A stretch of 64,000 bases of DNA from Candidatus Aceula lacicola (GCA_030765785.1 JAVCCC010000032.1:5787-69786), one strand, 5' to 3'; shown: positions 1-49,201, counted from the first letter of the stretch. Notes: generated by a model from the letters alone, not told the origin. Made by a program: numbers and translations.

Positions 1-3000
1 CTTTAACAATTCCAGAAAAAGATTTGTGGGTCAATCTTTCTCCTTATGAAGAAAACCGCATTGTCGAAAAGAATTTCTCAGAAACAGACATGGGGAGAGA
101 TCTTTTGGCGCAAGATTATCTTTTAAAGCAAGTCGTGACCACATTGATTTATCCAGAGGGAGAGATAGGAAAAAAGTTTTGGGAAAAAGTTTACAAGAAA
201 GCATATGAACTTTTTGGTACGACTGAAGTCTCTGTTGATTCCTTGAACAAAGTGTGGATTGTTCCTGATAAGGCTGTTGTTTACGAAAGAGGAAATATGG
301 CTTTTGTTGCAGAGTCGAATCTTAAGGTTTTTATGGAAAAAGATTATTTGGCATCGAAAGAATATCAAAAAGATTCTTTAAGCAAGGAAAAGTTAAACGT
401 TGATCAGAAGCCTAAGCGAATGGATTTTTCAGATCAAATCGTTCAGGAAGTCATCATTCCAGAATTGGAGAAAGAAGTAAATTTTGGGAAAACTTTCAGT
501 CCTTTACGGCAAATTTATCATGCTCTTATTTTGGCAGATTGGTTTAAAAAGAAATTATCAAACAGTCTTATCAATTATGTTTATACAGGCAAAGGAAAAA
601 CTTCTGGAATAGATGTTTATGATCAAAAGGAGGCTGGAAGAATTTATTCTCAATATATTGAGAATTATAAAAAAGGGACTTGTGATTATCTTAAAGCAGA
701 ATATGATCCATTTTTAAAAAAATATGTTCCTCGCAAGTATTTTTCGGGTGGAGTAACTTGTATGAATGTTGATAGCCAAGTCCTAGACAATCCCGACGAC
801 CTTTCCTCTTCTAATTTAAAGAATATTAAAAGGGATGCCGTGAAGTATCATATTGCTTTGCAGCAGGCACCTTCTCAGTTATCTAGCTCAATTTCTTCAG
901 ATGCAATTCTTCCTAAGGATGGATCGATTTTCAATAGTGAGTTTGCGCCTGGCGAATTTGTTCGTCAGCTTCCTGAGGAAAATCGCGAGTGGCATATGGA
1001 AAACTTAAAGGAGTGGATCATTGAGAACGCAGAGAGATATTTGAATGAGCGGCTTTCCGGTGCTATTCGTTGGGATATTTTTATGAACCACTCCTTGCCT
1101 TATTTTGGGTTTTCGAATGATCAGATATTAGAAATTGTTGATCGTCTTAAAGTAGAGGAGAAGTCTTTAAAGATTTCTTCTGAAGGTAATCGTCCGGCTG
1201 AGTGGGAAATGATTGAATCCCTTAAGAGTTCGGCGTGGCCCTATACACAGATAATGGCAAAGAATATCATTGCTTATTTAAGGTTTGAAGAGAGTGAATC
1301 TGCCGAAAAGGATTTTTCAGAGATTTTTAGGAGTGGACAAATTTTTAAAGAGAATATTATTTTTTCAATTTCTGGAATAAAAGAAAGCTACAAGCTTTAT
1401 CCGTATTTGCGACAAATTATTAAGGATACGTTTTTTTTATCGAGTTCAAAAACAGAAAGAATTGATAAGTTAATGCGCATCGCAGAACGTGAAGTCAATG
1501 TAAGCACGCACAAAGGACAAGACCTTTTGAATTTTTCTAACTTAAAGAAAATATTAGAAAGTAATCATCAAAGACGAAGAACGGGACCAAATGCAACCTA
1601 TGATCCTGAGGTTACGGAGGCTCTAGAAGAGTTAAAGATTCTGGCAGCAAGCCTGATCGATAAAACACCGGGGGCTATTGATGATGTTAAAGAAATTGTT
1701 AGCATATATTGCGATCAAGACATCTTGCTTAGACTTGAAGATGCTGTCGAGCTGTTTTCTGGCGGAGATAATCTTGAGGCGATTCTTGTGTTAACAAATA
1801 TTAGGTCAGATCTTTATTTGTTAATTGTCGAGCAAATAAAACAAGCAGATAAAATTAATCATAGTCGTCAGCAGCGCTATGGTCCCCATATTTCTCAGTC
1901 TCAAGAGAAGGCAACAATAGCTTATAAGCTTATGGAGGCAGATATTTTGATTGAGCAGATGATTGTTGATTCTTCTACGGAAGCTTTTTCTTTGGTTAGA
2001 AGCAACGCAAGTTTAAAATCTTTTTCTTTAGAGAATGTTAAAGATATTATCTTGTCGGTATACATTATTGCTAAAAATATGTCTCATTCGATCGGTGCGC
2101 AGCCAGCGTTAAATGTTTTTGCTGATAATTTAATCAAGCTAAGAGATTCTGACCATCTTGGCGAAGAAAAGGAATATTATAGAATTTATGGGTTAATTCA
2201 GCAGATTGAAGCTGAGCTTGCTGATAATGTTGATAATTTGGTGAAGGAATTTAAATTTCGCGTTGAAGCCATGCAAAAGAATCAAGGTGTTAATGATTAT
2301 GAAGATACGCCTGAGTCCCTAGGGTTTGTTCAGGATTTTCTGATTTCAACGATGTTAAGGCAATTTAGCGAACGATTTCTTTTGGATTGTAGGAAAATAA
2401 TTGATGAGATGGAGGGCCCTCAAGATTTGACGATGACAGTCGATTCGGTTTCTCAACGAAAGGTTAGAAAGATCGTAAACGTTCCTGTTGATCTAGATCA
2501 CATTCCTTTAATCGTTAGTTTTGAGTCAGCAACAGAAGATCAAATGAGGAAGATTGGATCTAAAGCCTTTGGCCTTTACATCATGAAGAAATTGGGTATG
2601 CCTGTTCCCCCGTGGTTTGTGATCCGGGCAAAGCCTCGAAAGGATATTTTTGATATTAATGAAGTCCGAGATGAGCTGGAAAACCAGATTAAGGAAATTG
2701 AAAAAAGTAGCGGAACAAAAATAGGAGACCCAAAGAATCCTTTGTTGTTTTCTTTGAGATCAGTATTTCAGGTTTCTATGCCGGGAGAGTTTCCAACAGT
2801 TTTAAATGTAGGGATGAATCAAGAAGTTTTTGAAGGATTGAAGGAATCTAGGGGTGAGAAATTCGCTTTAATTAGCTATCTTGCTTTCTTAAAAACATAT
2901 GCAGATATGTTATATCCTAATTTATCAGATAGAGTAAATATGGATGATTTTTTAGGAGACGATCAAGATATTGATAGTTTATTGGATTTTTTAAGTGGAC

Positions 3001-4202
3001 TTAAGATTTTTTTAAAGCAGTCTAAAATCAAAATTCCCGAAGATCCTTGGCAGCAAATAGAAATTATTGTAGATCATATTATGAATAAATCAACGACACC
3101 AGAAATAGAGAATTTCTTGGCTTTGCATGGTCTCCCAGATTCTTGGAAAGTGAGTGTTATTTTTCAGAAAATGGAGTTTGGCTATTTAAACGATGAATCT
3201 TATACGGCAGTTGCTCACACGAGGGATGTGATGACTGGCGAAGATAAATTTGACATTGAGGCGATTTATGGAGCAACAGGAGAGTCTGTTGTTGGGAAAA
3301 GAAGCTCTGCGCGCCAAGTTCATAATATTCTCCCGGTGGAGGATGAAGAAATGCTAGAAATTTTTAAGCCGCAGTTAGAAAAAATATTTGGTGGCCCTGT
3401 TGAGCTTGAAATTACCAGGGGCGAAAAGCTTCATTTCCTTCAAGCTAGAACAGGACATCTTGGGGCGCAAGCGCTAAAGAAAAGCTTGAACGATTTGGTT
3501 CAAGAGAAAATTTTAACAAAGGAAGAGGCGGCTTTTCAGATTGAAATTGCTGAGACCCTTTCTGGCAAGAATGAAATCTTTCCTAACGCAGAGTCTTTGG
3601 TTATCGCTGGTGGAATTAGCGGGGGCGTCATGGCAGGGCCAATTTGCTTATCTCTTGATCAGGCAAGGAAAGCCATGAGTGACGGGGAAAATGCTATTTT
3701 AATTCTAGAAAATACACCTGATAGAAATGATAAATCTTATTATGGAAAGAACCTAGGGGTTGTCACGGCTCACGGAGGCCCATCTCAACATTTTTCTGTT
3801 TGGTCAAGACAATATCACATGCCTTACATTTCGATGGTAAAAGACATTGAAATTGATCTGGGCAACAAAAAGATTAAAATGGGAGGCAGGCAGTTTAAAG
3901 AGGGAGATGTTGTCACGATGGATGGTTATCGTGGATTGATTTTTAATGGAAATGTTGTTAAGAATTCTTCTCCAGCGGGAAAAGGGGTCGGATCCTCTGC
4001 TGTTGGTGGTATCGACTTGAGTCGGACGTTTGAATCCTTAAATATAAAGATGGATCAGTCTGGATCACCTTTGCCTGTCGAGTTTCAAGATATTGATCAG
4101 ATTCATATTCGAGGATTGATTCCCGTGATTATTAATGTTGTGCCTGTTCAGAATGTATCAACGCTTCTTGGGATTAACGCAAAAGGTTTAGTTGGATTCT
4201 AA
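1..4202 (+). CDS. Giant multidomain protein, 5'-partial (frame open to window edge). Shared N-domain (~nt 1-780), unique middle, PPDK/PEP-synthase-type ATP-grasp domain (~2430-3500), PEP-utilizer swivel phosphohistidine domain (~3560-3960), shared C-terminal tail (~3990-4202)
   Basis: No in-frame stop back to nt 3. The N-terminus aligns with aa ~110-360 of the next gene (LWVNLSPYE..MGRDLLAQDY..KVWVIPETAVVYE..RKYFSGG). 'KLGMPVPPWFVI' and 'RSVFQVSMPGEFPTVLNVGMN' match the PPDK_N 'GLPVPPGF' and 'VSMPGMMDTVLNLGLN' motifs. 'VVTAHGGPSQHFSVWSRQYHMPYI' matches the 'GGRTSHAAIIARELGIPCVVG' swivel-His motif. No PEP/pyruvate barrel follows. Confidence 0.7.
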   Translation, partial: LTIPEKDLWVNLSPYEENRIVEKNFSETDMGRDLLAQDYLLKQVVTTLIYPEGEIGKKFWEKVYKKAYELFGTTEVSVDSLNKVWIVPDKAVVYERGNMAFVAESNLKVFMEKDYLASKEYQKDSLSKEKLNVDQKPKRMDFSDQIVQEVIIPELEKEVNFGKTFSPLRQIYHALILADWFKKKLSNSLINYVYTGKGKTSGIDVYDQKEAGRIYSQYIENYKKGTCDYLKAEYDPFLKKYVPRKYFSGGVTCMNVDSQVLDNPDDLSSSNLKNIKRDAVKYHIALQQAPSQLSSSISSDAILPKDGSIFNSEFAPGEFVRQLPEENREWHMENLKEWIIENAERYLNERLSGAIRWDIFMNHSLPYFGFSNDQILEIVDRLKVEEKSLKISSEGNRPAEWEMIESLKSSAWPYTQIMAKNIIAYLRFEESESAEKDFSEIFRSGQIFKENIIFSISGIKESYKLYPYLRQIIKDTFFLSSSKTERIDKLMRIAEREVNVSTHKGQDLLNFSNLKKILESNHQRRRTGPNATYDPEVTEALEELKILAASLIDKTPGAIDDVKEIVSIYCDQDILLRLEDAVELFSGGDNLEAILVLTNIRSDLYLLIVEQIKQADKINHSRQQRYGPHISQSQEKATIAYKLMEADILIEQMIVDSSTEAFSLVRSNASLKSFSLENVKDIILSVYIIAKNMSHSIGAQPALNVFADNLIKLRDSDHLGEEKEYYRIYGLIQQIEAELADNVDNLVKEFKFRVEAMQKNQGVNDYEDTPESLGFVQDFLISTMLRQFSERFLLDCRKIIDEMEGPQDLTMTVDSVSQRKVRKIVNVPVDLDHIPLIVSFESATEDQMRKIGSKAFGLYIMKKLGMPVPPWFVIRAKPRKDIFDINEVRDELENQIKEIEKSSGTKIGDPKNPLLFSLRSVFQVSMPGEFPTVLNVGMNQEVFEGLKESRGEKFALISYLAFLKTYADMLYPNLSDRVNMDDFLGDDQDIDSLLDFLSGLKIFLKQSKIKIPEDPWQQIEIIVDHIMNKSTTPEIENFLALHGLPDSWKVSVIFQKMEFGYLNDESYTAVAHTRDVMTGEDKFDIEAIYGATGESVVGKRSSARQVHNILPVEDEEMLEIFKPQLEKIFGGPVELEITRGEKLHFLQARTGHLGAQALKKSLNDLVQEKILTKEEAAFQIEIAETLSGKNEIFPNAESLVIAGGISGGVMAGPICLSLDQARKAMSDGENAILILENTPDRNDKSYYGKNLGVVTAHGGPSQHFSVWSRQYHMPYISMVKDIEIDLGNKKIKMGGRQFKEGDVVTMDGYRGLIFNGNVVKNSSPAGKGVGSSAVGGIDLSRTFESLNIKMDQSGSPLPVEFQDIDQIHIRGLIPVIINVVPVQNVSTLLGINAKGLVGF
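2430..3960 (+). other. PPDK/PEP-synthase-like nucleotide-binding (ATP-grasp) plus swivel phosphohistidine domain segment inside the giant protein, lacking a PEP/pyruvate TIM barrel. Putative catalytic His codon at 3789-3791
   Basis: Motifs listed for the parent CDS; 'HTRDVMTGEDKF' resembles the PPDK 'FTRNPSTGEKKL' segment. Confidence 0.6.
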
Positions 4203-4303
4203 GGTAAATCAGAATTGCTAGAATTTTTTATTAGAAATCTTGTATTTTATTTTTATCTTTTTTGAAGAACTTTTTCAAGCCTGTAAGGCATTTGCTGTGA
4301 GTA

Positions 4304-4312
4304 TGTTAGAAT
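4304..4312 (+). promoter_or_regulatory. Possible extended -10 promoter element (TGtTAGAAT) upstream of giant gene 2
   Basis: 'tgttagaat' at 4304-4312; no good -35 found. Confidence 0.2.
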
Positions 4313-4387
4313 ATAGACATTTACTAGGACTGTGAGATATTGAGCTTCAAAACCTTGCTTTTTCTTAGAAATATGCTATATTTTTAC

Positions 4388-4418
4388 AAACGTTTTCAAA
4401 AGAAAACGTTTTCAAAAC
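4388..4418 (+). promoter_or_regulatory. Tandem direct repeat 'aaacgttttcaaaaG/C' (4388-4402 and 4404-4418), each with an internal inverted repeat (cgtttt..aaaacg), located 140 nt upstream of giant gene 2. Candidate operator or small hairpin
   Basis: Read directly from the sequence: acaaacgttttcaaaagaaaacgttttcaaaaccc. Confidence 0.35.
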
Positions 4419-4557
4419 CCTGACATTATTTTTATAATTTTTTTTCTATCAGTTAGGGGCAAAAATGCCACGATTTTATATATTTTAAAATAAACAAATA
4501 ACAATTAAACTTCATTTCTCAAATTAATTCGCCACGGAGAAAAAAAGGAGTAAATTC

Positions 4558-7500
4558 ATGATCAGTACATTCGAAGCGAGAAAATCAACTTTCTCTTATA
4601 AGGCACTTTGTGCGTTTGTCGCATTCGCTTTTTTTGCGACAATGGTTATTTTCCCTAATACAGCTCAGGCTCAAGGTGTGGCTAGTTTGCCGGCACCTGG
4701 AACTATGATCGGTATGACACCGGCATTTGCACCGCCAATTATTAAGGGTGTGCAGATTGATCCGCAGCATCCATTCCAGTTTAATTTTGTTCTTGATACT
4801 GGAGATGACCATGTCTCAGGCAAAAAGCTTGAACGCGAAGCCGACAAACTTATCAAATATTTCTTAGCTGCGATTACTGTTCCTGATGAAGATTTATGGG
4901 TGAACCTTTCTCCATATGAACAAGACCGCATCGTTCCAGAAGAATTTGGAAAAACAGAAATGGGACGTGATCTTTTGGCTCAGGATTATATTTTAAAACA
5001 ATTTACGGCATCCTTGATTTATCCTGAAGATGAGCTTGGAAAAACGTTCTGGGATCGAGTATACAAAAAAGCATATGAAAAGTATGGCACAACGGATATC
5101 CCTGTTAATACTTTTAACAAAGTATGGGTTATTCCTGAGACAGCCGTTGTTTATGAGCATGAAGGCACAAGCGCTTTTGTTGTTGAAAGACATCTAAAAG
5201 TTATGCTTGAAGAGGACTATCTTGCCTTATCGAATAATTTAAATAATGAAAAAATTGGAACAAGCCTTCAGGGTGAGGCTGAATCTAAAGATGTGAATAG
5301 TATTTCTTCTGAGATTGTTCGAGAAATTCTTATTCCAGAGATTGAGAAAGAAGTTAACTTTGGAAAGAATTTTGCTAACCTTCGCCAGATTTATAATGCT
5401 ATGATTTTATCAACTTGGTACAAAAGACAGTTGCGCGAAAGTGTTTTTGCTGGTGCGTATGCGAATAAAAATAAAGTTTCTGGTGTTGATATTGCCGATA
5501 AAGCGCAAGCGCAGAAAATTTATAATCAGTATTTGGAAGCGTTTAAAAAAGGTGTTTGCGACTATATTAAGGTAGAGCAAGATTCTCAAACGGGAAGAAA
5601 TATTCCAAGAAAATATTTTTCTGGTGGTTCGAAGCATGTTTCAAAAAATGTTCGTGTTAAAAAGAATTTATCGTCTTTGACATCAAGACAAGCAGGAGAA
5701 TTCAGCGCGAGCGCTGGACCTTTGGCTGTTGTTAAGGGTTTTGCGGATCCGGCTAACATTAAGTCGGCAGGAGAGAGAGCAGTTTTAGGATACAGAGGTG
5801 CAAAGGATGATGTATCGGGTTCTCCAATAGTTGTCGATGACATAGATGGTAAGGATGAGTACGTCCTTCAAGTAGGAAGTGAGGGAGTTTTTGTTAAGGA
5901 TAAAAATTGGGTTCAATTTATAGGAAAGAGATTGAGGCCAATTCAAGCATTAGAGAAAGCAATCGATGTTTTTCTCTCTAAGCATTTTTCTAAAATAGAT
6001 TATGAAAGTATAGTTTTGCAATGGGATCGAGCTCAAACTCGATTAGATGGGGTTGATGTTGTCTCATTGTCTCAAGGGAAGATAGATCAGATATCGGAAT
6101 CGTTAAAAAAGGCATCAAAACGCAGTCAGAGTCTAGACACAGATTTTAAGATTATGATGGATAATTTAAAATTTTATCAAGATCGACTTGAAAAAATAGT
6201 TGGAGACCTTGCGTATGAGGTGAGTAATGGCAAGAAAGTTTCTGAAATAAATTCGAACGATCTTTTGAGAAAGGCCAGAGAAGGGGAAAAAGATACAAAA
6301 ATTTTAGATGAATCTGGTTTGACAAAATTATTCAGGAAAGTAAGTGGATTTTTAAGGCTTGAACAATTTACAGCGATTAATGTCGCTGTTTCTCTTCATA
6401 GTATGCTTTTAAAATTTGCTGGAACAGATGCTCCTGGTTGGCAGTGGGCTTTGTGGGCGTTAGCTACCTTTTCTGTCACAACCATTATTCATGAGTTAGG
6501 TCACTGGTATCAAGGTCAGAAATCTAACACTCTTACATTGGAAGAAATTCCTTTTAAGATTATAAGAGATTCAGGAAAAATAAAGGATTCTTTGCTACTA
6601 AAATATTACAAGAATCAATCTGTTCTAAAACAATCGATTGAGGAGAAGATGCTTAAAGATAAGCTTTTTAAAGAAGAAGTTGAAGATTTTGTGAAAGGCC
6701 TTGAGTTTAAAAGTGTTTCTGGAGATAAACTGATTTTTGATGTTAGCGAAATTGATAAAAAACTTTCTGATGGAAAGAAAGAAAAGTTTTTTGAATATTT
6801 TGAAAAAGATAGCTGGCTGATGGATTCTAAAAAAGAGCACGAAATGCGAACAGGTATGGCTAATTATTGGGAAAAGACAAAATTGATTAACCGTTTAAAA
6901 AGACATGATATTATTAAGGGGTCAAAGTGGATTCCAGAATGGCTGACTTTTAACGCGCGAGGCTTGCAAGTTAATTTTAGCCGAACAACTTTGCAAAATC
7001 TTGCCTATGGGCCTCTTTTTAGCGCTTGGATGACAGGGGGAGCGATAGCGGTTTTGTTGGCTTCTCTTATTGTTCCTGGACTAGCCACAACATGGGTTCC
7101 TGGACTAGCGCTAACAACAGTTGTCATTGGGCTTTTTAATTCCATTTTTGCTGATAATTCAGCTCTTTTAGATTTAATAAAAGAAAAAAGGTTGGACCGA
7201 GCACGTAAAAAGGCAGTTAAGGCAGGTGTTGGCAAAGAAGAAGCAAAAACCATAGATGTTGATTTGCTTGTTAAGGGTAAAGATGGCAAGATGAGATCTT
7301 GGAGCATGATGAATCCTGAAGATATCAGAAGCATTGTGCGATATGATGAAAAAAAGAATGTTTATGTTCTCCCAGCAATGATTCATTGTAACGTTATTAA
7401 TGGCGGAAAACATTCAGACGGAAGCGCAACATTTCAGGAGTGGATGTATTTGCCTCTTGGGTCTGAGAGTGTTGATGAGGCCTTAGAAAAATTAACTGAC

Positions 7501-9246
7501 CTTTTTGATGCATTAAAACGAATTGTTCGAGCTGAATATGGGACATTGGGGGAAATGGGGAAAGAAGGAGGAATTGCCCCTATTTTACCAAACCAGAGAG
7601 AAATCCTTGTTTTGATGCGTAAAGCAGGAGAATTGTGCGGTTATGTTGAAGGAAAAGATTTTGCATATTCGCTTGATATTGCGGCTAGTGAGATGGAAAA
7701 TGCGGCAGAAAAAGCGGGTGAGCCGGGACAGTATCGAATGTTCAAAGACAGAAATCCAGTGAATTTACAGACGGATCAATTAATAGACGTATATGGAGAA
7801 TTAATAAAAGAATTTTGTATTATTTCTATTGAGGATCCTTTTCACGAAGATGATGTGGAAGGGTATACGAAATTTACAAAACTTTACGGAAAGAACGGAA
7901 CACGTCTTGAGGGTCTTCGTTTTCCGATTCAGAAAAAAGGGATACAGATTGTTTTAGATGACATCTCTGCGACGAATCCTATGTTAATTTACGCATTGAA
8001 ACAGGCAGGATGCGGAAATTCTATTTTGATTAAGCTTAATCAAATAGGGACGGTAACTGAAACGATTAATGCCATCAAAATTACGGAAGGCAATGGCGTT
8101 CCATTATTGCAAAAGGAAAAAGATGGTAAAGAATATGCTGATTCCTATGGAACAAAAATTTCACATCGTTCTGGGGAAACTGAGGACACCCTTCTTGGAG
8201 ATTTTGTTGTTGGAATGGGTGGTGGCCAGCTTAAAACCGGATCGGTAAATCGATCAGATAGAATGGGAAAATACAATCGATTGAAGAAAATAGCACATTT
8301 TTTAGAAGCGAATGTGGCCAAGAAGCGATCGTTATTAATTAAGCCGAAAGGTGAAATTATCATTACGGATGCTTTGGCAACAGATACCTATGATTCTAAT
8401 GGGAATCCGACAGTAACGCTTGAACTTTATTTTTCTAATGGCAGTAAGCAGGAAGCAACGGTTCCTTCTGGAGCTTCAACTGGTAAAAGAGAAGCTCAAG
8501 AATTGCGAGATGGTGACAAAGAACACCATCGAGGAAAAGGAACTAAGAAAGCGACAAAAAATGCTGCAGACTTGGCGGAGAAAATATTAGTAGGAAAGAA
8601 GCTTTCAGAGCTGAACCAATTTGATGTTGATCAGGCTATGCTGAGAGACGAGTTAGAAAAAGGGAAAGTAAACAATTATCAAGAAATTAAAAAAAGAGGA
8701 AAAAATCCTATTATTAATTTAGAGCGAGATGAATATTTAAATACGGTTGAGCAACAGCTTTATAAAACAGAGAATGGGGCTAATGCAATGTTGGCTGTGT
8801 CTATGGCGTTTGCGAGAGCTAAGGCATATTCTGAAGGACTTGAGCTATTTCAATATTTTGCCGAATTGAAGAAAGAGCCAATGAGGCAGGATGAATTGTA
8901 TGGTGTAAAGGTTCATTTTAATCCTCTTGATGCGAATGTTGTCTCCTCTGGAATACCTACAAATGTAAAAACATTAGATAGATCAGTATCTTTTCCACCT
9001 GTTGCCAGCGTTGGCGCAATCGACAACAATGAATCTCTTGGTGGTATTAGCATGAATTCTGGATTATTGGATCTTCAAATCAAGAGAGATAGCGCAGGTT
9101 CACCGCTTCCAATCAGTCAGCAACCGATTATGAATATGAATATTCAAGGGTTTAAATTTAATATTATGACAATTACGCCAATTACAACAACGTTGCCGAT
9201 GTATTTGGGGATGAGTGATGGTGATTTGTCGATTGCAATGTTGTAA
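4558..9246 (+). CDS. Giant secreted/membrane protein (1562 aa). Signal peptide, shared N-domain (~4860-5640), HELGHW zinc-peptidase-like motif in a hydrophobic segment (6490-6504), two TM helices (~7000-7170), circularly permuted enolase (~7357-8875), shared C-terminal tail (~9040-9246)
   Basis: RBS aaaaaaggag 8 nt upstream of the ATG. N-terminal 'FVAFAFFATMVIFPNTAQAQ' reads as a signal peptide. Enolase signatures 'SILIKLNQIGT', 'ISHRSGETED' and 'GQLKTGSVNRSDR' precede 'DSNGNPTV..VPSGASTGKREAQELRDGD..NGANAMLAVSMA'. Confidence 0.8.
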   Translation: MISTFEARKSTFSYKALCAFVAFAFFATMVIFPNTAQAQGVASLPAPGTMIGMTPAFAPPIIKGVQIDPQHPFQFNFVLDTGDDHVSGKKLEREADKLIKYFLAAITVPDEDLWVNLSPYEQDRIVPEEFGKTEMGRDLLAQDYILKQFTASLIYPEDELGKTFWDRVYKKAYEKYGTTDIPVNTFNKVWVIPETAVVYEHEGTSAFVVERHLKVMLEEDYLALSNNLNNEKIGTSLQGEAESKDVNSISSEIVREILIPEIEKEVNFGKNFANLRQIYNAMILSTWYKRQLRESVFAGAYANKNKVSGVDIADKAQAQKIYNQYLEAFKKGVCDYIKVEQDSQTGRNIPRKYFSGGSKHVSKNVRVKKNLSSLTSRQAGEFSASAGPLAVVKGFADPANIKSAGERAVLGYRGAKDDVSGSPIVVDDIDGKDEYVLQVGSEGVFVKDKNWVQFIGKRLRPIQALEKAIDVFLSKHFSKIDYESIVLQWDRAQTRLDGVDVVSLSQGKIDQISESLKKASKRSQSLDTDFKIMMDNLKFYQDRLEKIVGDLAYEVSNGKKVSEINSNDLLRKAREGEKDTKILDESGLTKLFRKVSGFLRLEQFTAINVAVSLHSMLLKFAGTDAPGWQWALWALATFSVTTIIHELGHWYQGQKSNTLTLEEIPFKIIRDSGKIKDSLLLKYYKNQSVLKQSIEEKMLKDKLFKEEVEDFVKGLEFKSVSGDKLIFDVSEIDKKLSDGKKEKFFEYFEKDSWLMDSKKEHEMRTGMANYWEKTKLINRLKRHDIIKGSKWIPEWLTFNARGLQVNFSRTTLQNLAYGPLFSAWMTGGAIAVLLASLIVPGLATTWVPGLALTTVVIGLFNSIFADNSALLDLIKEKRLDRARKKAVKAGVGKEEAKTIDVDLLVKGKDGKMRSWSMMNPEDIRSIVRYDEKKNVYVLPAMIHCNVINGGKHSDGSATFQEWMYLPLGSESVDEALEKLTDLFDALKRIVRAEYGTLGEMGKEGGIAPILPNQREILVLMRKAGELCGYVEGKDFAYSLDIAASEMENAAEKAGEPGQYRMFKDRNPVNLQTDQLIDVYGELIKEFCIISIEDPFHEDDVEGYTKFTKLYGKNGTRLEGLRFPIQKKGIQIVLDDISATNPMLIYALKQAGCGNSILIKLNQIGTVTETINAIKITEGNGVPLLQKEKDGKEYADSYGTKISHRSGETEDTLLGDFVVGMGGGQLKTGSVNRSDRMGKYNRLKKIAHFLEANVAKKRSLLIKPKGEIIITDALATDTYDSNGNPTVTLELYFSNGSKQEATVPSGASTGKREAQELRDGDKEHHRGKGTKKATKNAADLAEKILVGKKLSELNQFDVDQAMLRDELEKGKVNNYQEIKKRGKNPIINLERDEYLNTVEQQLYKTENGANAMLAVSMAFARAKAYSEGLELFQYFAELKKEPMRQDELYGVKVHFNPLDANVVSSGIPTNVKTLDRSVSFPPVASVGAIDNNESLGGISMNSGLLDLQIKRDSAGSPLPISQQPIMNMNIQGFKFNIMTITPITTTLPMYLGMSDGDLSIAML
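7357..8875 (+). other. Circularly permuted enolase module: C-terminal TIM-barrel domain (7357-~8320) followed by the N-terminal capping domain (~8350-8875). Metal ligands and catalytic residues apparently conserved
   Basis: Barrel start 'YVLPAMIHCNVINGGKHSD' compared with E. coli 'SMPVPMMNIINGGEHAD'. 'SLDIAASE', 'SIEDPF' and 'VLDDI' match Mg ligands D246, E290 and D317. K345, H373 and K396 equivalents are present. N-domain Ser in 'SGASTGKREA'. Confidence 0.7.
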
Positions 9247-9272
9247 GATTTGATAGTTTAGTAATGTTTTAA

Positions 9273-9307
9273 AGGCCGCTGCTTAGCAGTGGCCTTTTTA
9301 TTTTTTA
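9273..9307 (+). terminator. Rho-independent terminator after giant gene 2
   Basis: Hairpin aggccgctg-ctta-cagtggcct followed by ttttattttttt. Confidence 0.6.
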
Positions 9308-9345
9308 CCTTTTACCCGATACCGTTTTTCTGCTACAATCCAACT

Positions 9346-9852
9346 ATGGAGAAAAACATTGCACTCGTTGGTTTCATGGGGTCAGGAAAGTCTGTTGTGG
9401 CCAAGCTCTTGGCCAAACAGCTTGGGCGTAAGCTTATCAGCACGGATCAGTTAATTGTTGAACGCGAAAGAATGGAGATTACGGATATTTTTTCGATTAA
9501 GGGAGAAAAATATTTTCGTGATGTTGAAGAAGATGTTGTCTTTGAGGTAAGTCAAGGCGAAGGACTTGTGATTGATTGCGGGGGCGGTGTTGTTTTAAGA
9601 GAACAGAATATAAATAATTTGCACTATAGAAGTATTATTGTTTATTTGAAAACCTCTTCAGAGGCTATCTATAGCCGGATTAAAGATCAGATGCATCGGC
9701 CGCTTTTAAATGTGGAAGATCCAAAATCTAAAATTGATGAATTGATTGCTCCACGCTTATCGTTTTATGAGAAAGCAAACTTGACTGTTGACACGTCTAA
9801 GAAAACAATTGATTTTGTCGTCGATGAAATTATAAAAAGTATTTCTCAATGA
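9346..9852 (+). CDS. aroK: Shikimate kinase
   Basis: 'IALVGFMGSGKS' P-loop. Start moved to the internal ATG at 9346, because the upstream ORF extension lies over the terminator. Confidence 0.8.
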   Translation: MEKNIALVGFMGSGKSVVAKLLAKQLGRKLISTDQLIVERERMEITDIFSIKGEKYFRDVEEDVVFEVSQGEGLVIDCGGGVVLREQNINNLHYRSIIVYLKTSSEAIYSRIKDQMHRPLLNVEDPKSKIDELIAPRLSFYEKANLTVDTSKKTIDFVVDEIIKSISQ

Positions 9853-15090: not shown

Positions 15091-16142
15091 AGAAATATCT
15101 TTATGAACTTATGACAGATCAGCGTAAAGATTGGCTAGCGCAAATCTTTAAGATCGTTTTGTTGGTTTTGTCTTTTTTGTATTGGGCGGGAATCAAAATA
15201 ATTTTATGGATGTATCGTCAAAAGATTTTAAAGACAAAACGGTTGCCAAAGCCTGTTATTAGCGTCGGCAACATTACCATTGGTGGTGTTGGCAAAACGC
15301 CTTTAGTTCGTTTGATTGCAACAATGTTTCAATATCACAGCCTTAAGCCTGTGATATTGACTCGAGGTTATATGGCAAAGGGTACGGGTTCGGACGAAGC
15401 TGAGATGCTTAGAAGCCAACTAAAGGATGTTCCTATTTTAGTCGGAGCTAATCGATATCAGGTAGCTCAAGATTTTTTAAGAGCGAACAGAGCCGATATT
15501 TTTATTTTAGATGATGGATTTCAGCATTGGTCGCTTCTTAGAAATTTTAACATTGTTGCGATTGACTCAACGCGTCCGTTTGGAAATCTTTTTTTAATTC
15601 CGCGTGGAATTTTGCGTGAACCAATGGATTCATTGAAGCGAGCAGATATTTTTATTCTGACAAAAACAGATTTGGGAAAAGAGAATATAAAGAAAATTTG
15701 CCAGAAGATAAAGCAATTTCAGCCTGCAGCGGTTATTGTAGAGACAGTACATAATCCTGTGGCTTTAATTAATATTAACAATTCTGGAGACAGACGGGAC
15801 ACGTCTGCTATTTCGGGTCATTTGGCATGTCTTTTTTCAGGCATCGGAGATCCTCGATCTTTTGAAGGAAGCGTCGAATCTCTCAGGGTTGATATTAAAA
15901 AACATTTTATTTTTATGGATCATCATTGTTATTCTAAAGATGACATTGAGCGCATTGTTCATTATTGTCGAGTTCACAATATTAAAACATTAATTACAAC
16001 ACAAAAAGATGCTGCTCGATTGCCTGGGTTATTGCATTTATTCTCAAGGGAATTGAATGTTTTTATTTTGGAAATTGAGATGAAAATTTTGAAAGGAGAG
16101 CAAGATCTTGAAAAGCGAATTTTCTATTTTCTGGATCGTTAA
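15087..16142 (+). CDS. lpxK: Tetraacyldisaccharide 4'-kinase
   Basis: 'SVGNITIGGVGKTPLV' P-loop. Confidence 0.85.
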   Translation: MKKYLYELMTDQRKDWLAQIFKIVLLVLSFLYWAGIKIILWMYRQKILKTKRLPKPVISVGNITIGGVGKTPLVRLIATMFQYHSLKPVILTRGYMAKGTGSDEAEMLRSQLKDVPILVGANRYQVAQDFLRANRADIFILDDGFQHWSLLRNFNIVAIDSTRPFGNLFLIPRGILREPMDSLKRADIFILTKTDLGKENIKKICQKIKQFQPAAVIVETVHNPVALININNSGDRRDTSAISGHLACLFSGIGDPRSFEGSVESLRVDIKKHFIFMDHHCYSKDDIERIVHYCRVHNIKTLITTQKDAARLPGLLHLFSRELNVFILEIEMKILKGEQDLEKRIFYFLDR

Positions 16143-18063
16143 GATTTTTGCTGCGTTTGTGCGTTGGCTTCCTGTGTCAGTTGCGCTTTGGTTGGGGCGT
16201 GTGATTGGGACGATAGGGTATCTTATAGATCATCGACATAAATCGCTTGCATATGCAAATTTAAAGATTGCATTTTCTTGTCAAAAAAAGACAAGCGAAA
16301 TTAAAGGTATTTTAAAGAAGGTTTTTCAGAATTATGCGCAGAATTTTATTGAACTTTTGCGTCTTCCAAAGATTGACCCACATCAATATATTACGCTTGA
16401 GGGAAAAGAACATGTTGATGAAGCTTTGAAAAAGAACAAAGGACTTATCTTGCTTGCAATGCATTTTGGCAGTTGGGAGCTTTGTAACTTTATGAGCAAG
16501 CTTTTAGGTCATCCATATCGAGTTGTTGTCAATCCTCAAAAACGACATCAAAGGCTTAATGATTTGCTTAATTCTTATCGTCAGAAGGCAGGGGCAAGCC
16601 TTGTTGAGCCAGGTTCGGGAACGCGTGATTTTGTAAAAGCTTTGCGTAATAATGAAATTGTTGGAATGGTTGTTGACCAAGGAGGAAAAACAGGAAGTCT
16701 TACTAAATTCTTTGGAAGGGAATCTTCGATGTCTTTAGGCGCGATTAAAATGGCGTTAAAGCTAGGAGTCCCTGTTTGTTTTTGTACGATTGTCCGTGAT
16801 CCTAAGGCTGCGCATCATAAGCTTAAAGTTTTTTCGCCGTCTCAGTTTGAGATAAGCGGTAATAGAGATCAAGATATCGCTGATAGTTTAAATAAAGTTG
16901 TTACTCAGATGGAAAAAGTTATTGTTAAATATCCTTCTGAGTATATGTGGTTTTATAAAATTTGGAAGTATTCAAAAGAATCCACCATTGTTGTCTTGAG
17001 CGATCAAAAATTTGGACATTTAAATCAGTCAAGGGCATTTTCTGAGAAAATTAAAAAGGCATTAGCGGAGCGATCTATTCGATGCCATATCGAGGTCATC
17101 GATGTTGAGTTTAAAGATGAAGCAAAAAAAACAATGTTTGCAGCACTTAGCTTTGCTATTCATGAAAAGACCTCACAAGGACGTCTTCGATATTTAAAAT
17201 GGTTCTTAAAGCGTAAATCGTTTTTAGAGGTAATGAGCGTTAAAGGGGATTTTGTTGTATCATGCGGTTCGTCTATTGCAGGTGTTAATTATTTTCTATC
17301 TCAGGATTATCGTGCTAAAAGCATTGTTCTTCAGAAGCCAGGAATTTTAAGTTTTAAACGGTTTGATCTTATTCTTTTGCCAAAACATGATAAGAAAAGT
17401 TCTCAGCAGTATGGAGAAAATGTTGTCTTTACGAATTTGACGCCGAACCTTATTGATCAAGAGTATTTGCAAAGCCAAGCAAGCAGGTTGATGGCAAAGT
17501 TTCCAGACCTTCATCATCGCAAAAGTCCAACCATTGGCCTAATGATTGGTGGAGAATCAAAAAATTATTTTATATCAAATATTCAGGTTGAAAGTATTGT
17601 TGAGCAGGTCAAAGAGGTGGTTGAACAACGGCAAGGTCGAATTTTAGCAACAACTTCAAGGCGAACTCAAAAAGATGTTGAGATTGTCGTTAAAGCAGGA
17701 TTGTCTGATTTTAATCAATGTCCGTTTTTGGTTATCGCGACTGAAAATAATGTGCCAGAAGCGGTTGGTGGTATTTTAGGAATTTCTGACATTGTTATTA
17801 TTTCCTCAGACAGCATCTCTATGATTTCAGAAGCTGTTAGCTCTGGAAAAACTGTTATTGTATTTGATGCAGAAAAGAGAAAAGTTAATTACAGAGGAAA
17901 GCATGAAGTTTTTGCTGAGAATTTGTTTAAACAAGAACATATTTTGAGAGCGAAAACATATGAAGTTGGATTGGTTTTAAATAACGTCATTGAAAATAAT
18001 ATTAAAACTAAGCCTATTTGCGATCAACAAGTTTTGTTTGAGGCTGCACGCCAAATTATATGA
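16108..18063 (+). CDS. lpxL: Lipid A lauroyl/myristoyl acyltransferase (LpxL/HtrB family) fused to a C-terminal DUF1022/ELM1-like domain. TTG start with a strong SD
   Basis: N-terminal half matches the LpxL family ('MHFGSWEL', 'MVVDQGG'). C-terminal half 'LSDQKFGHLNQSRAFSE..IGLMIGGESKNY' resembles the DUF1022 N-terminal motif. SD 'gaaaggagag' is 8 nt before ttg16108. Confidence 0.6.
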   Translation: MKSEFSIFWIVKIFAAFVRWLPVSVALWLGRVIGTIGYLIDHRHKSLAYANLKIAFSCQKKTSEIKGILKKVFQNYAQNFIELLRLPKIDPHQYITLEGKEHVDEALKKNKGLILLAMHFGSWELCNFMSKLLGHPYRVVVNPQKRHQRLNDLLNSYRQKAGASLVEPGSGTRDFVKALRNNEIVGMVVDQGGKTGSLTKFFGRESSMSLGAIKMALKLGVPVCFCTIVRDPKAAHHKLKVFSPSQFEISGNRDQDIADSLNKVVTQMEKVIVKYPSEYMWFYKIWKYSKESTIVVLSDQKFGHLNQSRAFSEKIKKALAERSIRCHIEVIDVEFKDEAKKTMFAALSFAIHEKTSQGRLRYLKWFLKRKSFLEVMSVKGDFVVSCGSSIAGVNYFLSQDYRAKSIVLQKPGILSFKRFDLILLPKHDKKSSQQYGENVVFTNLTPNLIDQEYLQSQASRLMAKFPDLHHRKSPTIGLMIGGESKNYFISNIQVESIVEQVKEVVEQRQGRILATTSRRTQKDVEIVVKAGLSDFNQCPFLVIATENNVPEAVGGILGISDIVIISSDSISMISEAVSSGKTVIVFDAEKRKVNYRGKHEVFAENLFKQEHILRAKTYEVGLVLNNVIENNIKTKPICDQQVLFEAARQII

Positions 18064-20165
18064 GAATACTTCAAATTCTTCCAGAATTGCATGTCGGCGG
18101 TGTTGAAACAGGAACTGTTGACTTGTCTCGTTATTTAGTTGAACATGGACATCAGTCTTTTGTTGTGTCTAATGGAGGCGATCTTGTTTCAGATTTAGAA
18201 AAAACAGGGGGAAAACATTTTAAGCTTCCTGTGCATAAGAAAAATCTTTGGACTGCAATTTATTCAATTAAAAAGCTTAAAGAAATTTTTGTTGAAGAAA
18301 AAATTGATTTGGTTCATGTGCGTTCGCGCGTTCCGGGATGGATTGCATATTGGGCGTGTCGGAAAACAGGAACGCCTTTTTTAACAACATGCCATGGACA
18401 CTATTCAAAGCATTTGTTTAGTCGTGTGATGGGGTGGAGTAAGTTTGTTATTGTTCCAAGTCAAGTCATTGGGCAGCACATGATTCAAGATTTTGGTGTT
18501 TCTTCAGAAAGTATTCGCTGTATCCCCAGGAGCGTGGACCTTCGTAAGTTTAATATTCCCCATAAGAGCATTTCTGGAGGATCAGAATACGTTGTTTCAA
18601 TTGTGGGCCGTATTACCCCGCTAAAGGGGCATGAATATTTTTTAAAATCTATGGCGCGTGTTGTTCGGCACTTTCCGTATATTAAGATTTGGATCATCGG
18701 CGATGCTCCAGCAAAGAAGCAGTCGTACAAAGAAGGACTTGTTGCGTTAACTAGACGTCTTGGACTTTCGGATCATGTTGAATTTTTAGGGAATCGTCGA
18801 GACATTCCAGAGCTTTTATCAAAAACAGATGTTTTGGTTCTTTCGACAGTGACACAAGAATCGTTTGGTCGCGTGATTGTCGAGGCCCAAGCGGCAGGCG
18901 TCCCTGTTGTTGCGACAAAAGTAGGAGGCGTTGTTGAAATTATTGATCATGAAAAAACAGGACTTTTAGTTTTACCAAGGCATCCAGAAGAAATGGCTGA
19001 TGCCGTTGTCCGATTGTTGGAAAATAAGGAGCTATCTGCGCAATTTGTTGCTAATGCAAAACAAAAAATATTATCGAATTATACGCTTGAACATATGGCG
19101 AGCCAAACGCTTGAAGTTTATGATGAGCTTTTAAAGAAAATTAACATTCTTGTTATAAAGATTAGTGCAATTGGTGATGTTATTCTTGCGACACCTTCTT
19201 TGCGTGCATTGAGAGAAAAATACCCTTTTGCTAAAATATATTGTCTTGTCGGAAGACAGGCTCGAGAGATTTTGCAGCGATGTCCATATATTGATGAGTT
19301 GATTGTTTATGATACAAAAGATAAGAATAGAGGGTGGTGGGGTATTTGGAAGCTCGCGAGGAAATTGAGAAAATATAAGTTAGACAAAACGATTGATTTT
19401 CAAAATAATCGAAAAAGTCACTTATTAGCATTTTTAAGTTTTTGTCCGCAGCGATATGGGTACAAGAATAAGAAGTGGGGGCATCTTTTGTCGAACGGCA
19501 TTTTAGACGACGATGGTCCGATGCCAGCCGTTGCGCATCAGTTTCGTATCCTAAGAGAGATTGGCATTTCTCCTCAGAATCAATTTCTGGAATTGTGGCC
19601 ATCCAAAGAGGATCAAAGAGAGGTTAAGGAACTTTTGCAGGGACAATGGGTCAATGAAGATGCCCAGCTTGTTGGGATTCATTTGGCTGCATCAGAGCGT
19701 TGGGCAACAAAATCTTGGGGCCTTGAATATATTGCACAACTTTGCGATATGCTGGCCGCGCAAAATATTCGAACTGTCATTACTGGATCAGAAAAAGATA
19801 TTCCTTTGATGCAGAGACTTTCGAAAATTACAAAGGCAAAACCAGTTGATTGCGTTGGCAAAACAAGTGTTCTGCAGCTCGCTGCACTTATCAAGCGTTG
19901 TTGTGTTTACATTGCGCCTGATTCAGCACCGCTTCACATTGCAGCAGCCGTACGAACACCGTTTATTGCATTGTTTGGTCCAACGGATCCAGCGCGCCAT
20001 ATGCCACCTGCAAAAGAGTTTAGAATGCTTTTTCAACGCGTTGAATGCGCTCCATGCTATCAGGGTCAGTGTCCAATCCACACTCATGTATGTATGGAGA
20101 AAATAACACCAGATCAGGTTTTAGAAGAAGTCGAACAGTTGATGCAAATACGAGCAAGATTATGA
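18060..20165 (+). CDS. Bifunctional glycosyltransferase: N-terminal GT4 domain fused to a C-terminal GT9 (ADP-heptose:LPS heptosyltransferase) domain
   Basis: N-terminal half 'VRSRVPGW..GRITPLKG..E(x7)E..FGRVIVEAQAAGVPVVATKVGG' fits GT4. C-terminal half 'ILVIKISAIGDVILATPSLRAL' and 'APDSAPLHIAAAVRTPFIALFGPT' fits GT9. Confidence 0.7.
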   Translation: MRILQILPELHVGGVETGTVDLSRYLVEHGHQSFVVSNGGDLVSDLEKTGGKHFKLPVHKKNLWTAIYSIKKLKEIFVEEKIDLVHVRSRVPGWIAYWACRKTGTPFLTTCHGHYSKHLFSRVMGWSKFVIVPSQVIGQHMIQDFGVSSESIRCIPRSVDLRKFNIPHKSISGGSEYVVSIVGRITPLKGHEYFLKSMARVVRHFPYIKIWIIGDAPAKKQSYKEGLVALTRRLGLSDHVEFLGNRRDIPELLSKTDVLVLSTVTQESFGRVIVEAQAAGVPVVATKVGGVVEIIDHEKTGLLVLPRHPEEMADAVVRLLENKELSAQFVANAKQKILSNYTLEHMASQTLEVYDELLKKINILVIKISAIGDVILATPSLRALREKYPFAKIYCLVGRQAREILQRCPYIDELIVYDTKDKNRGWWGIWKLARKLRKYKLDKTIDFQNNRKSHLLAFLSFCPQRYGYKNKKWGHLLSNGILDDDGPMPAVAHQFRILREIGISPQNQFLELWPSKEDQREVKELLQGQWVNEDAQLVGIHLAASERWATKSWGLEYIAQLCDMLAAQNIRTVITGSEKDIPLMQRLSKITKAKPVDCVGKTSVLQLAALIKRCCVYIAPDSAPLHIAAAVRTPFIALFGPTDPARHMPPAKEFRMLFQRVECAPCYQGQCPIHTHVCMEKITPDQVLEEVEQLMQIRARL

Positions 20166-27798: not shown

Positions 27799-27811
27799 AA
27801 AGGAGAGGACA

Positions 27812-49189: not shown

Positions 49190-49201
49190 TGAAAAATTAT
49201 T

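Follow-up and report, generated by a model that had tools for sequence, protein, structure and literature searches.

We analyzed two adjacent, very large genes at the start of a 64,000-nt stretch of DNA from Candidatus Aceula lacicola, a member of the phylum Omnitrophota. The whole stretch is referred to here as the window, and window-based positions count from its first letter. The window opens inside gene 1, so that the initial 95 aa of its product, Sec signal peptide included, are encoded further upstream; the full gene (L001 5161-9645) encodes a protein of 1494 aa (NCBI MDP8264555.1) that is annotated as 'PEP/pyruvate-binding domain-containing protein'. Gene 2 encodes a protein of 1562 aa (NCBI MDP8264556.1) annotated as 'hypothetical protein'. 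An earlier reading of the same DNA, made from the sequence alone and called here the original prediction, had proposed that the two proteins share their N- and C-terminal modules around different enzyme domains derived from phosphoenolpyruvate (PEP) metabolism. The two genes and their parts are as follows; L003 is a related genome locus described below.

3..4202, + strand: gene 1, 5′ end cut by the window edge (open reading frame from 24, frame open from nt 3)
3..752, + strand: family N-terminal domain (N-domain) of gene 1, C-terminal ~250 aa of the domain, ending in the RKYFSGG motif
753..2513, + strand: central region of gene 1, ~585 aa, no detectable homology, 48% identical to the L003 orthologue
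2514..3686, + strand: PPDK-type nucleotide-binding (ATP-grasp) domain of gene 1 (PF01326, TIGR01828, 1dik alignment)
3687..3935, + strand: PEP-utilizer 'swivel' phosphohistidine domain of gene 1 (PF00391, aa 1229-1311 in window numbering, E 6.9e-9)
4005..4199, + strand: family C-terminal tail of gene 1, GGIDLS...LNIKMDQSGSPLPVEFQ...IRGLIPVIINVVPVQNVSTLLG
4558..9246, + strand: gene 2, 1562 aa
4558..4671, + strand: Sec-type signal peptide of gene 2, predicted from hydropathy (positive n-region, hydrophobic core, A-Q-A|Q cleavage site after residue 38)
4687..5628, + strand: family N-domain of gene 2, LPAPG to RKYFSGG
6490..6504, + strand: HELGH (HExxH) motif of gene 2, at the end of a hydrophobic helix
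7042..7137, + strand: two adjacent hydrophobic segments of gene 2 (aa 829-860), a transmembrane hairpin predicted from Kyte-Doolittle hydropathy only
7363..8307, + strand: enolase C-terminal TIM-barrel domain of gene 2 (PF00113 at aa 936-1250, E 5e-67, 227 bits; ~ human ENO1 residues 157-430)
8341..8871, + strand: enolase N-terminal domain of gene 2, placed after the barrel (aa 1262-1438; ~ ENO1 residues 9-151; SGASTG loop kept)
9040..9237, + strand: family C-terminal tail of gene 2, GGISMN...LQIKRDSAGSPLPISQQ...IQGFKFNIMTITPITTTLPMYLG

Comparison of the two proteins by BLASTP showed that their similarity is confined to the ends. The N-terminal blocks were identical at 138 of 271 positions (51%; E 2e-84, and E 6e-91 by phmmer), with 63% identity at the nucleotide level, and the C-terminal blocks at 16 of 40 positions (40%; E 2e-5); nothing significant aligned between them. 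A profile of the family tail matched both tails at E ~1e-23 to 1e-25. The shared N-domain, the common tail and the unrelated centres of the original prediction were therefore all recovered, but its figures for the N-domain (~60% at the amino-acid and ~75% at the nucleotide level) were too high. The signal peptide that it had proposed for gene 2 was also supported, and the complete gene 1 has one as well. In both proteins the Sec-type signal peptide is followed by a ~300-aa domain of the form WVNLSPYE ... TEMGRDLLAQDY ... EKEVNxGKNF ... RKYFSGG, and a single ~60-aa tail, GGIDL ... LQIKRDGxGxPLP ... GFxPVIINITPV..LP.LLG, lies no more than ~80 aa from the C-terminus.

The cargo of gene 1, as we call the part between the shared ends, had been described as a PPDK-type ATP-grasp domain paired with a swivel phosphohistidine domain and lacking a PEP barrel, and searches against Pfam, NCBIfam and the PPDK structure 1dik agreed with this description. 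PPDK_N (PF01326) matched aa 886-1100 (window numbering; E 2.9e-16), and the C-terminal third of the protein aligned to residues 6-513 of the 874 residues of Clostridium symbiosum PPDK (1dik) at E 1e-52. The catalytic His is kept within GGPSQH at 3774-3791 (His codon 3789-3791), which aligns to GGMTSH of 1dik. The match to the NCBIfam PPDK model TIGR01828 covered only positions 4-510 of 865 and scored 228 bits, far below the equivalog cut-off of 843, which sets gene 1 apart from PPDK and PEP synthase (PPS). Because the two alignments end at 510/865 and 513/874, the PEP/pyruvate TIM barrel (1dik residues ~535-874) is absent, and the family tail stands in its place; without a PEP/pyruvate-binding barrel, gene 1 is therefore not expected to handle PEP. 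The combination of ATP-grasp and swivel domain with its catalytic His is common to PPDK, PEP synthase, rifampin phosphotransferase and glucan water dikinase, of which the last two likewise lack the PEP barrel, and dikinases of that type use ATP. Unlike these enzymes, gene 1 has no recognizable acceptor-binding domain and its cargo is embedded in a family protein with a signal peptide. The cargo would take a phosphate from ATP onto its His and hand it to some acceptor other than pyruvate. Ahead of the dikinase region, aa 260-839 (window numbering) gave no match in Pfam and no sequence match in the PDB.

In gene 2 the order of the enolase domains is inverted, the barrel lying upstream of Enolase_N (PF03952 at aa 1269-1363, E 8e-31, 107 bits), and the break falls exactly at the domain boundary. 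A linker of ~15 aa connects the native C- and N-termini, and there are two insertions of ~16 aa. The protein nevertheless scored 330 bits against the NCBIfam enolase model TIGR01060, above its cut-off of 300, and alignment to human ENO1 showed that all metal-binding and acid/base residues are present: S39, E168, E211, D246, E295, D320, K345, H373/R374/S375 and K396 (yeast numbering). The Pfam order, the ENO1 alignment and the TIGR01060 score all bear out the circularly permuted enolase of the original prediction; it is a true circular permutation and is predicted to be active. What distinguishes it from an ordinary enolase is the barrel-first order, the linker, the insertions and the 1562-aa host protein with a signal peptide. 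We know of no natural permuted enolase that has been described, and this permuted, catalytically complete enzyme represents a rare natural circular permutation in core glycolysis.

The region preceding the enolase (aa 381-931) matched nothing in Pfam and no PDB sequence. It had been called Ste24/HtpX-like (M48), a designation that we could not sustain: there is an HELGH motif beside hydrophobic helices, and neither Peptidase_M48 nor any other peptidase family in Pfam matched gene 2 at E ≤ 1. A similar HEMGH is found in one close relative of gene 2 and is missing in another, so that a metalloprotease role for the HExxH motif is possible, albeit without profile support. The permuted enolase would sit downstream of this membrane hairpin region bearing the HExxH motif, and with a hairpin, as predicted at aa 829-860, N-domain and cargo stay on one side of the membrane.

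We then asked how widely the two ends occur. A search with an N-domain profile against 1.84 billion cluster representatives (clusters at 50% identity) yielded 8,394 clusters at E ≤ 1e-3, of which 6,810 also passed E ≤ 1e-30. Among the top 150 proteins by score, lengths ranged from 420 to 5,312 aa, and the domain was always found at residues ~1-400. More than 1,200 proteins were found with the N-domain as the sole query. Those with a taxon name came from Omnitrophota metagenome-assembled genomes (MAGs), a few others were labelled only as hydrothermal vent metagenome, and a Pfam match on the N-domain itself was missing in nearly all of the proteins retrieved. In 51 genome loci, nearly all from Omnitrophota MAGs, we counted 71 N-domain open reading frames (ORFs); they span 700 to more than 3,700 aa, and tandem arrays of 2-4 are frequent. 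The family tail has the consensus GGIDLN..L.LQIKRDG.G.PLP..QQ.....I.GF.PVIINITPV.NLP.LLG and was present in 55 of the 59 N-domain ORFs with a complete C-terminus at these loci. A tail lacking its N-domain was seen only in ORFs interrupted by the edge of a locus or, in the case of L005, by a stretch of N in the contig. Among database proteins, 106 of 117 in one set and 87 of 112 in another had exactly one C-terminal tail, 0-78 aa from the stop; those without a tail were mostly short (mainly 600-930 aa) and looked truncated, by length alone. Of 204 members, 199 begin with a hydrophobic segment, 196 have an n-region with net positive charge and 189 show an AxA-like site, and an Ala|Gln junction just ahead of the N-domain is conserved across the family. 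Hydropathy indicated no further hydrophobic or transmembrane segment in most members, gene 2 with its extra hairpin being an exception.

Many of the N-domain matches in the database are annotated 'partial' and end at contig edges, and single MAGs contribute several of them (NUV91_03175, _03895, _04465 and _04735; MNBD_UNCLBAC01 with at least 9 loci). Short-read assemblies probably break at the conserved N-domain, and the copy number per genome is probably high. After the tail, many members (e.g. L017, L024, P0289, P0291, P0327) have an acidic linker of 10-40 aa, and a terminal motif like (E/Q)-(L/V/I)-S-x-(L/I)-N stands at or near the C-terminus of 24 out of 253 members under the strict pattern, looser variants being far commoner. 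Gene 2 ends in DGDLSIAML (9217-9243). Judging by these patterns, linker and motif could be a third conserved element.

The N-domain and the tail had no match in Pfam or in NCBIfam, including its C-terminal sorting-signal models, and a scan of both full proteins at E ≤ 0.1 recovered only PPDK/PPS and enolase models and no model for type IX secretion system (T9SS), PEP-CTERM or LPXTG sorting. No autotransporter beta-barrel translocator and no SLH/S-layer domain was detected at either end. The possibility raised with the original prediction, that the ends might prove to be a known common domain such as an S-layer or autotransporter module, found no support in these searches. A PDB fold search with the N-domain returned no match; its model shows a mixed alpha/beta fold with three beta-hairpins. 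In a full-length AlphaFold2 model of a 602-aa member the first hairpin of the tail was predicted with a pLDDT (predicted local distance difference test) of 76-94, which suggests that the tail is structured rather than floppy. The invariant WVNLSPYE segment, the best conserved motif of the N-domain, rose from a pLDDT of ~51 in a model of the N-domain only to ~88 in the full-length model (alignments of 68 and 106 sequences, respectively), and the models are compatible with packing of the tail on the N-domain. When 245 sequences were subjected to mean-field coupling analysis, gap artefacts dominated the result, and no pair of positions linking the two domains was credible.

The neighbourhood of family members revealed no recurrent partner gene: the commonest neighbour clusters were found in at most 6 of 50 loci, and the most frequent neighbours were TPR, GGDEF/EAL, ABC transporter, aminotransferase and similar proteins. 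The shared function is therefore likely to be carried by the ends themselves or by machinery encoded elsewhere. One distant homologue was found outside the phylum, at L051 8540-11074 on a Syntrophorhabdaceae chromosome (OY762209.1), where a calcineurin-like phosphoesterase lacking both signal peptide and tail has the N-domain (31% identity) as its C-terminal half. Genes for a KaiC/STAND-like ATPase, a Fic protein and IS66 transposases lie beside it. The homologue may stem from a horizontal transfer that started in Omnitrophota, or may preserve an older role of the domain in the cytoplasm.

The diversity of the cargo was taken from the genome loci and from a database search with a 750-aa full-length query; a search of a 5.8-billion-protein database with the tail profile returned 20 small fragments with matches of about the query length, and was thus uninformative on cargo. 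Between the ends lie from 165 to about 5,000 aa. Pfam matches from central carbon metabolism comprised enolase, phosphoglucose isomerase (E 3e-198), class I aldolase (FBA), phosphoglycerate kinase, PPDK_N, sucrose synthase and UDP-glucose pyrophosphorylase (UDPGP). Amino-acid metabolism was represented by glutamate and alanine dehydrogenases and by serine acetyltransferase fused to a Cys/Met pyridoxal phosphate (PLP) enzyme, and lipid metabolism by acyl-CoA dehydrogenase, enoyl-CoA hydratase (ECH), AMP-binding enzyme and short-chain dehydrogenases/reductases (SDRs), with ECH, AMP-binding and SDR domains together in one member of 4,553 aa (P0278). Cargo for signalling and modification included protein kinases, PP2C, HATPase_c, receivers, CheR, radical SAM, methyltransferases, GNAT, HAD and HD; DnaJ, Macro, peptidases and HEAT/TPR repeats were also found, and in many members the centre had no Pfam match at all.

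We next examined how cargo and ends vary relative to each other. Among 245 members pairwise identity had a median of 59% in the N-domain and of 40% in the tail. Seventy-two pairs had N-domains that were at least 80% identical, and in 43 of these the cargo could not be aligned, the tails being ~85% identical in the closest pairs listed. Either the cargo has truly been swapped between constant ends, or the ends have been homogenized by gene conversion; in both cases the architecture acts as a cassette system. The conserved ends around swappable cargo seen by the original prediction in two genes were found to extend to a family of about 8,400 clusters, and in the hundreds of proteins examined the two ends occurred together at a ratio of ~1:1.

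The same pattern was apparent at the locus L003 of a related MAG (CAZYOA01), which is the nearest genome with synteny. The gene 2 orthologue there is 78% identical to gene 2 in the N-domain and 81-84% in the tail, but only 18% in the middle; its enolase is still permuted, at 28-31% identity, and most catalytic residues persist. The gene 1 orthologue is collinear, with 47-69% identity throughout and 56-66% in the dikinase cargo. Between the two orthologues, L003 contains a third family gene (4856-9511; 1552 aa) with cargo that has no Pfam match. This gene is absent from the window, where the spacer between gene 1 and gene 2 (4203-4557; 355 nt, AT-rich) takes its place.

Two further members bear on the nature of the cargo. 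At L026 15259-18831 (MAG CAIVRE01) the cargo includes glutamate dehydrogenase and alanine dehydrogenase (AlaDH), and AlaDh_PNT_C (aa 663-795) precedes AlaDh_PNT_N (aa 822-943); from this domain order, the latter enzyme may be a second circularly permuted cargo enzyme of the family. At L035 8288-13891 (also L036, L044 and L046), a canonical stand-alone Cys/Met PLP gene is immediately followed by a member whose cargo contains diverged Cys/Met PLP repeats. Because this canonical gene is adjacent and the cargo copy is only 24% identical to its product, with the PLP lysine kept, the cargo is, at least in this case, an extra, deeply diverged copy and not the sole one. Serine acetyltransferase domains were found in the cargo of the related L036 protein.

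Turning to the surroundings of the pair, the genes upstream are pfk, ilvC, leuA, aroE and a prepilin peptidase gene, and those downstream are aroK, dprA, topA, xerC/D, Kdo transferase, lpxK and lipopolysaccharide (LPS)-core glycosyltransferases, all on the same strand. Of these, the prepilin peptidase gene immediately precedes gene 1, and we did not see it recur at other family loci. This housekeeping context (aroE, aroK, dprA, topA, xerC, Kdo/LPS), together with uniform composition and strand, ruled out an origin from a mobile element or phage. Exact copies of the two proteins were each found on 19 contigs, including a 430-kb JGI metagenome contig; these contigs, the collinear orthologues and the recurrence of the architecture thousands of times ruled out misassembly. 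Three sites that may govern transcription and translation flank gene 2.

4409..4438, + strand: promoter-like site TTTTCA-18-TATAAT, upstream of gene 2 (consensus match only)
4545-4550, + strand: AAGGAG ribosome-binding site, upstream of gene 2 (consensus match only)
9271..9297, + strand: strong hairpin resembling an intrinsic terminator (12-bp stem with 7 GC pairs, T-run), immediately past gene 2

Because of the 355-nt spacer, the promoter-like site and the strong terminator, the two genes seem to be transcribed separately, as far as consensus matches can tell.

In the window as a whole (1-64000), 52 of the 53 ORFs of at least 150 aa lie on the + strand, the exception (49102-49752) overlapping + strand ORFs, and the GC skew is positive in all 2-kb intervals, which fits the leading strand of one replichore. 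Scans of the 64-kb window for tRNA and Rfam RNA genes detected none. Two tandem full-length serpin genes (26554-29053; 414 and 427 aa, PF00079 at E ~1e-125 each) sit within a stretch otherwise devoted to LPS/Kdo biosynthesis; serpins are uncommon in bacteria. Two LPS-related genes are fusions, one of a lipid A acyltransferase with an ELM1-like domain (16108-18063; 651 aa) and one of a GT4 glycosyltransferase with a GT9 heptosyltransferase (18060-20165; 701 aa). Gene fusion seems to be common in the A. lacicola genome, also beyond the N-domain/tail family.

The architecture, the size of the family, the pairing of its ends, the diversity and swapping of its cargo, the catalytic residues and the signal-peptide features were all observed here. 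We consider it somewhat more probable than the contrary that the pair are old tandem paralogues within a very large, almost Omnitrophota-confined superfamily of exported modular proteins, in which the ends serve as a post-export handle and the centre is exchangeable cargo. Each protein would consist of a cleavable Sec-type signal peptide, the ~300-aa N-domain, a variable centre and the ~60-aa tail 0-80 aa from the C-terminus. Following Sec export, both ends would provide a common handle for retention, for assembly, or for passage onward to the cell surface or to a partner cell. The centre would be exchangeable cargo, for the most part enzymes and signalling domains found in the cytoplasm of other bacteria, and would evolve and be replaced much faster than the ends.

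Export itself, the handle function of the ends and enzyme activity outside the cytoplasm are what we infer, and several observations weigh against them. The signal peptide and topology calls follow simple sequence rules. The cargo needs ATP, NAD(P), PLP, coenzyme A or S-adenosylmethionine, which are not expected in the periplasm or outside cells; such cargo hardly fits export unless its final location is another cell or compartment. Among the neighbours in the 50 loci, no gene for secretion or sorting was consistently linked, the PDB fold search gave the N-domain no fold relative that would point to anchoring or translocation, and the N-domain can work in another setting. Going further, it is conceivable, although we advance it only tentatively, that an unrecognized phylum-wide Omnitrophota system exports hundreds to thousands of housekeeping-type enzymes to a self-assembled coat or to partner or prey cells, so that much metabolism would take place outside a tiny cytoplasm; the giant proteins of the phylum would be its extreme members, and permutation would be an adaptation of the cargo to meeting ends.

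The destination of the proteins is where other explanations diverge. The N-domain and tail could be a MARTX-like translocation or injection module, the cargo being effectors that reach the cytoplasm of a host or prey cell, where cofactors for them are present, and with which a nano-sized epibiont or predator redirects the metabolism of that cell. Such a delivery platform, which overlaps the handle model and differs from it only in the final destination, would explain why cargo that is almost wholly of cytoplasmic type carries Sec signals, and a huge family with fast cargo turnover between constant ends is reminiscent of the repertoires of effectors and polymorphic toxins. Going by its title, a study of Ca. 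Velamenicoccus archaeovorus reportedly found predator intron RNA inside dead archaeal prey. In addition, Omnitrophota are mostly ~0.2 µm cells that are predicted to be host-dependent or predatory (PMC10066038). However, Pfam, NCBIfam and the PDB fold search detected no pore-forming, repeat or autoprocessing domain in the ends, no linked secretion system was found beside family loci, and HEAT repeats, receivers and CheR are not obvious effectors; we regard delivery as unlikely. Rather doubtful in our view is a self-assembling coat or filament, in which the tail would insert into the next N-domain by strand complementation, or the ends would fold in cis, and each subunit would display a different enzyme. 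The strict 1:1 ratio of N-domain and tail without a linked partner gene, and the far stronger conservation of both ends than of the cargo, speak for such a structure; the beta-strand-rich tail was modelled confidently only within the full protein, where WVNLSPYE also gained in pLDDT, and permuted cargo enzymes (enolase, possibly AlaDH in L026) agree with insertion between two meeting ends. Yet the gain in pLDDT may stem simply from the deeper alignment (106 against 68 sequences), no inter-domain coupling was found, and the identities of N-domain and tail correlate only moderately across pairs (Spearman 0.34).

A membrane metabolon organized by the ends, with an uncleaved N-terminal anchor and the whole protein in the cytoplasm, is the only explanation that puts cofactors within reach of every cargo domain, and the L051 homologue carries the N-domain in an apparently cytoplasmic protein. 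It is made highly improbable by the positive n-region (196/204) and AxA-like site (189/204), which predict an N-in, C-out orientation with cleavage, and by the conserved Ala-Gln junction just ahead of the domain; in a preprint on Omnitrophota long proteins, moreover, DeepTMHMM calls a signal peptide, alone or with transmembrane helices, for about half of them (10.64898/2026.06.07.730766). Equally hard to credit is the coupling offered by the original prediction, an extracytoplasmic dikinase that phosphorylates a polymer and is partnered with a PEP-generating enolase. The genes are adjacent, and their order, dikinase-type ... enolase-type, is kept in the related MAG; both cargo domains derive from PEP-pathway enzymes, the phosphocarrier His is kept in gene 1, and glucan water dikinase and rifampin phosphotransferase are precedents without a PEP barrel. 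But the emphasis on PEP metabolism is unsupported, as gene 1 lacks the one PPDK domain that binds PEP or pyruvate and the family cargo spans dozens of unrelated enzyme and signalling families, and the proposed partnership is opposed by the promoter-like site, terminator and spacer of gene 2, by the family gene with unrelated cargo that separates the two in L003, and by the very different rates of the cargoes (28-31% identity to L003 for the enolase, 56-66% for the dikinase). Tandem arrays with unrelated cargo are, in addition, common in the family. Given the intervening gene, the unequal divergence and the apparently separate transcription, the adjacency is best read as that of tandem paralogues.

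Omnitrophota are widespread and uncultured, with cells of ~0.2 µm, and their lifestyle and enormous proteins are open puzzles. The paired ends define a family by sequence instead of length; its members can be counted in any genome, and a common handling step is predicted for them. If the signal peptides are read correctly, glycolytic, amino-acid and lipid enzymes would be placed outside the cytoplasm, amounting either to a new surface or periplasmic biochemistry or to an effector arsenal directed against host metabolism. Pipelines that count enolase, phosphoglucose isomerase and phosphoglycerate kinase by KEGG orthology or Pfam may take exported family members for steps of cytoplasmic pathways. 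There is a substantial chance that the family represents something more fundamental than a variant of known exported enzyme proteins.

The original prediction did not recognize the architecture as a described family. For the ends this stands, as there was no match in Pfam or NCBIfam and our literature searches found no earlier description of them; it does not stand for exported multi-enzyme Omnitrophota proteins as such, which two preprints on giant proteins already report (10.1101/2023.11.21.568195; 10.64898/2026.06.07.730766). One of them describes Omnitrophota long proteins as mostly bearing signal peptides and/or transmembrane helices, with metabolic Pfam content, and as 'multi-enzyme metabolic clusters' (10.64898/2026.06.07.730766), and the other lists PPDK_N among 'Archaeovorin' domains (West-Roberts et al. 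2023, bioRxiv 10.1101/2023.11.21.568195). Keyword searches of the text of both gave no mention of the shared N-domain or tail. The 2026 study covers proteins of at least 10,000 aa, and the 2023 study 'giant' proteins of tens of thousands of aa. The giants belong to the same phylum and combine signal peptides or transmembrane helices with cytoplasm-type enzymes, as the N-domain/tail family does; PPDK_N, HEAT, GT1, HAD, GNAT, HATPase, receiver, radical SAM and ROK domains occur in both, and both have multi-enzyme members, such as P0278 in the family. Unlike the giants, which are defined by length, family members have 0.6-5.3 kaa, usually one or a few cargo domains and mostly no transmembrane helices, and the two proteins studied here, at 1494 and 1562 aa and with at most one transmembrane hairpin, are far from proteins of tens of thousands of aa with many transmembrane helices. 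We found no earlier description of the conserved N-domain and tail, of a class of 0.6-5 kaa, of the cassette exchange or of a permuted enolase.

Three well-studied systems resemble the family in part. MARTX toxins are, like the family, large secreted proteins with constant ends and exchangeable enzymatic cargo that differs between close relatives. They are secreted by the type I pathway without a Sec signal, have glycine-rich repeat ends and a cysteine protease domain that frees the effectors, and carry toxin cargo, whereas Pfam and NCBIfam detected none of these features in gene 1 or gene 2, and the cargo is of the housekeeping type. The cargo proteins of the T9SS combine a Sec signal with a small, beta-rich, conserved C-terminal domain on unrelated proteins within one phylum, which is also true of the family. 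Their sorting domain has ~80 aa and is carried by hydrolases and adhesins with no common 300-aa N-terminal domain; the family tail, by contrast, matched no NCBIfam T9SS sorting-domain model at E ≤ 0.1. In polymorphic toxins (Rhs, CdiA), the variable part is a toxin at the extreme C-terminus with an adjacent immunity gene, whereas in the family the variable part is internal, the cargo is metabolic and no immunity-like neighbour recurs. What polymorphic toxins and the family have in common is a constant trafficking part and the cassette-like replacement of the remainder between near-identical relatives.

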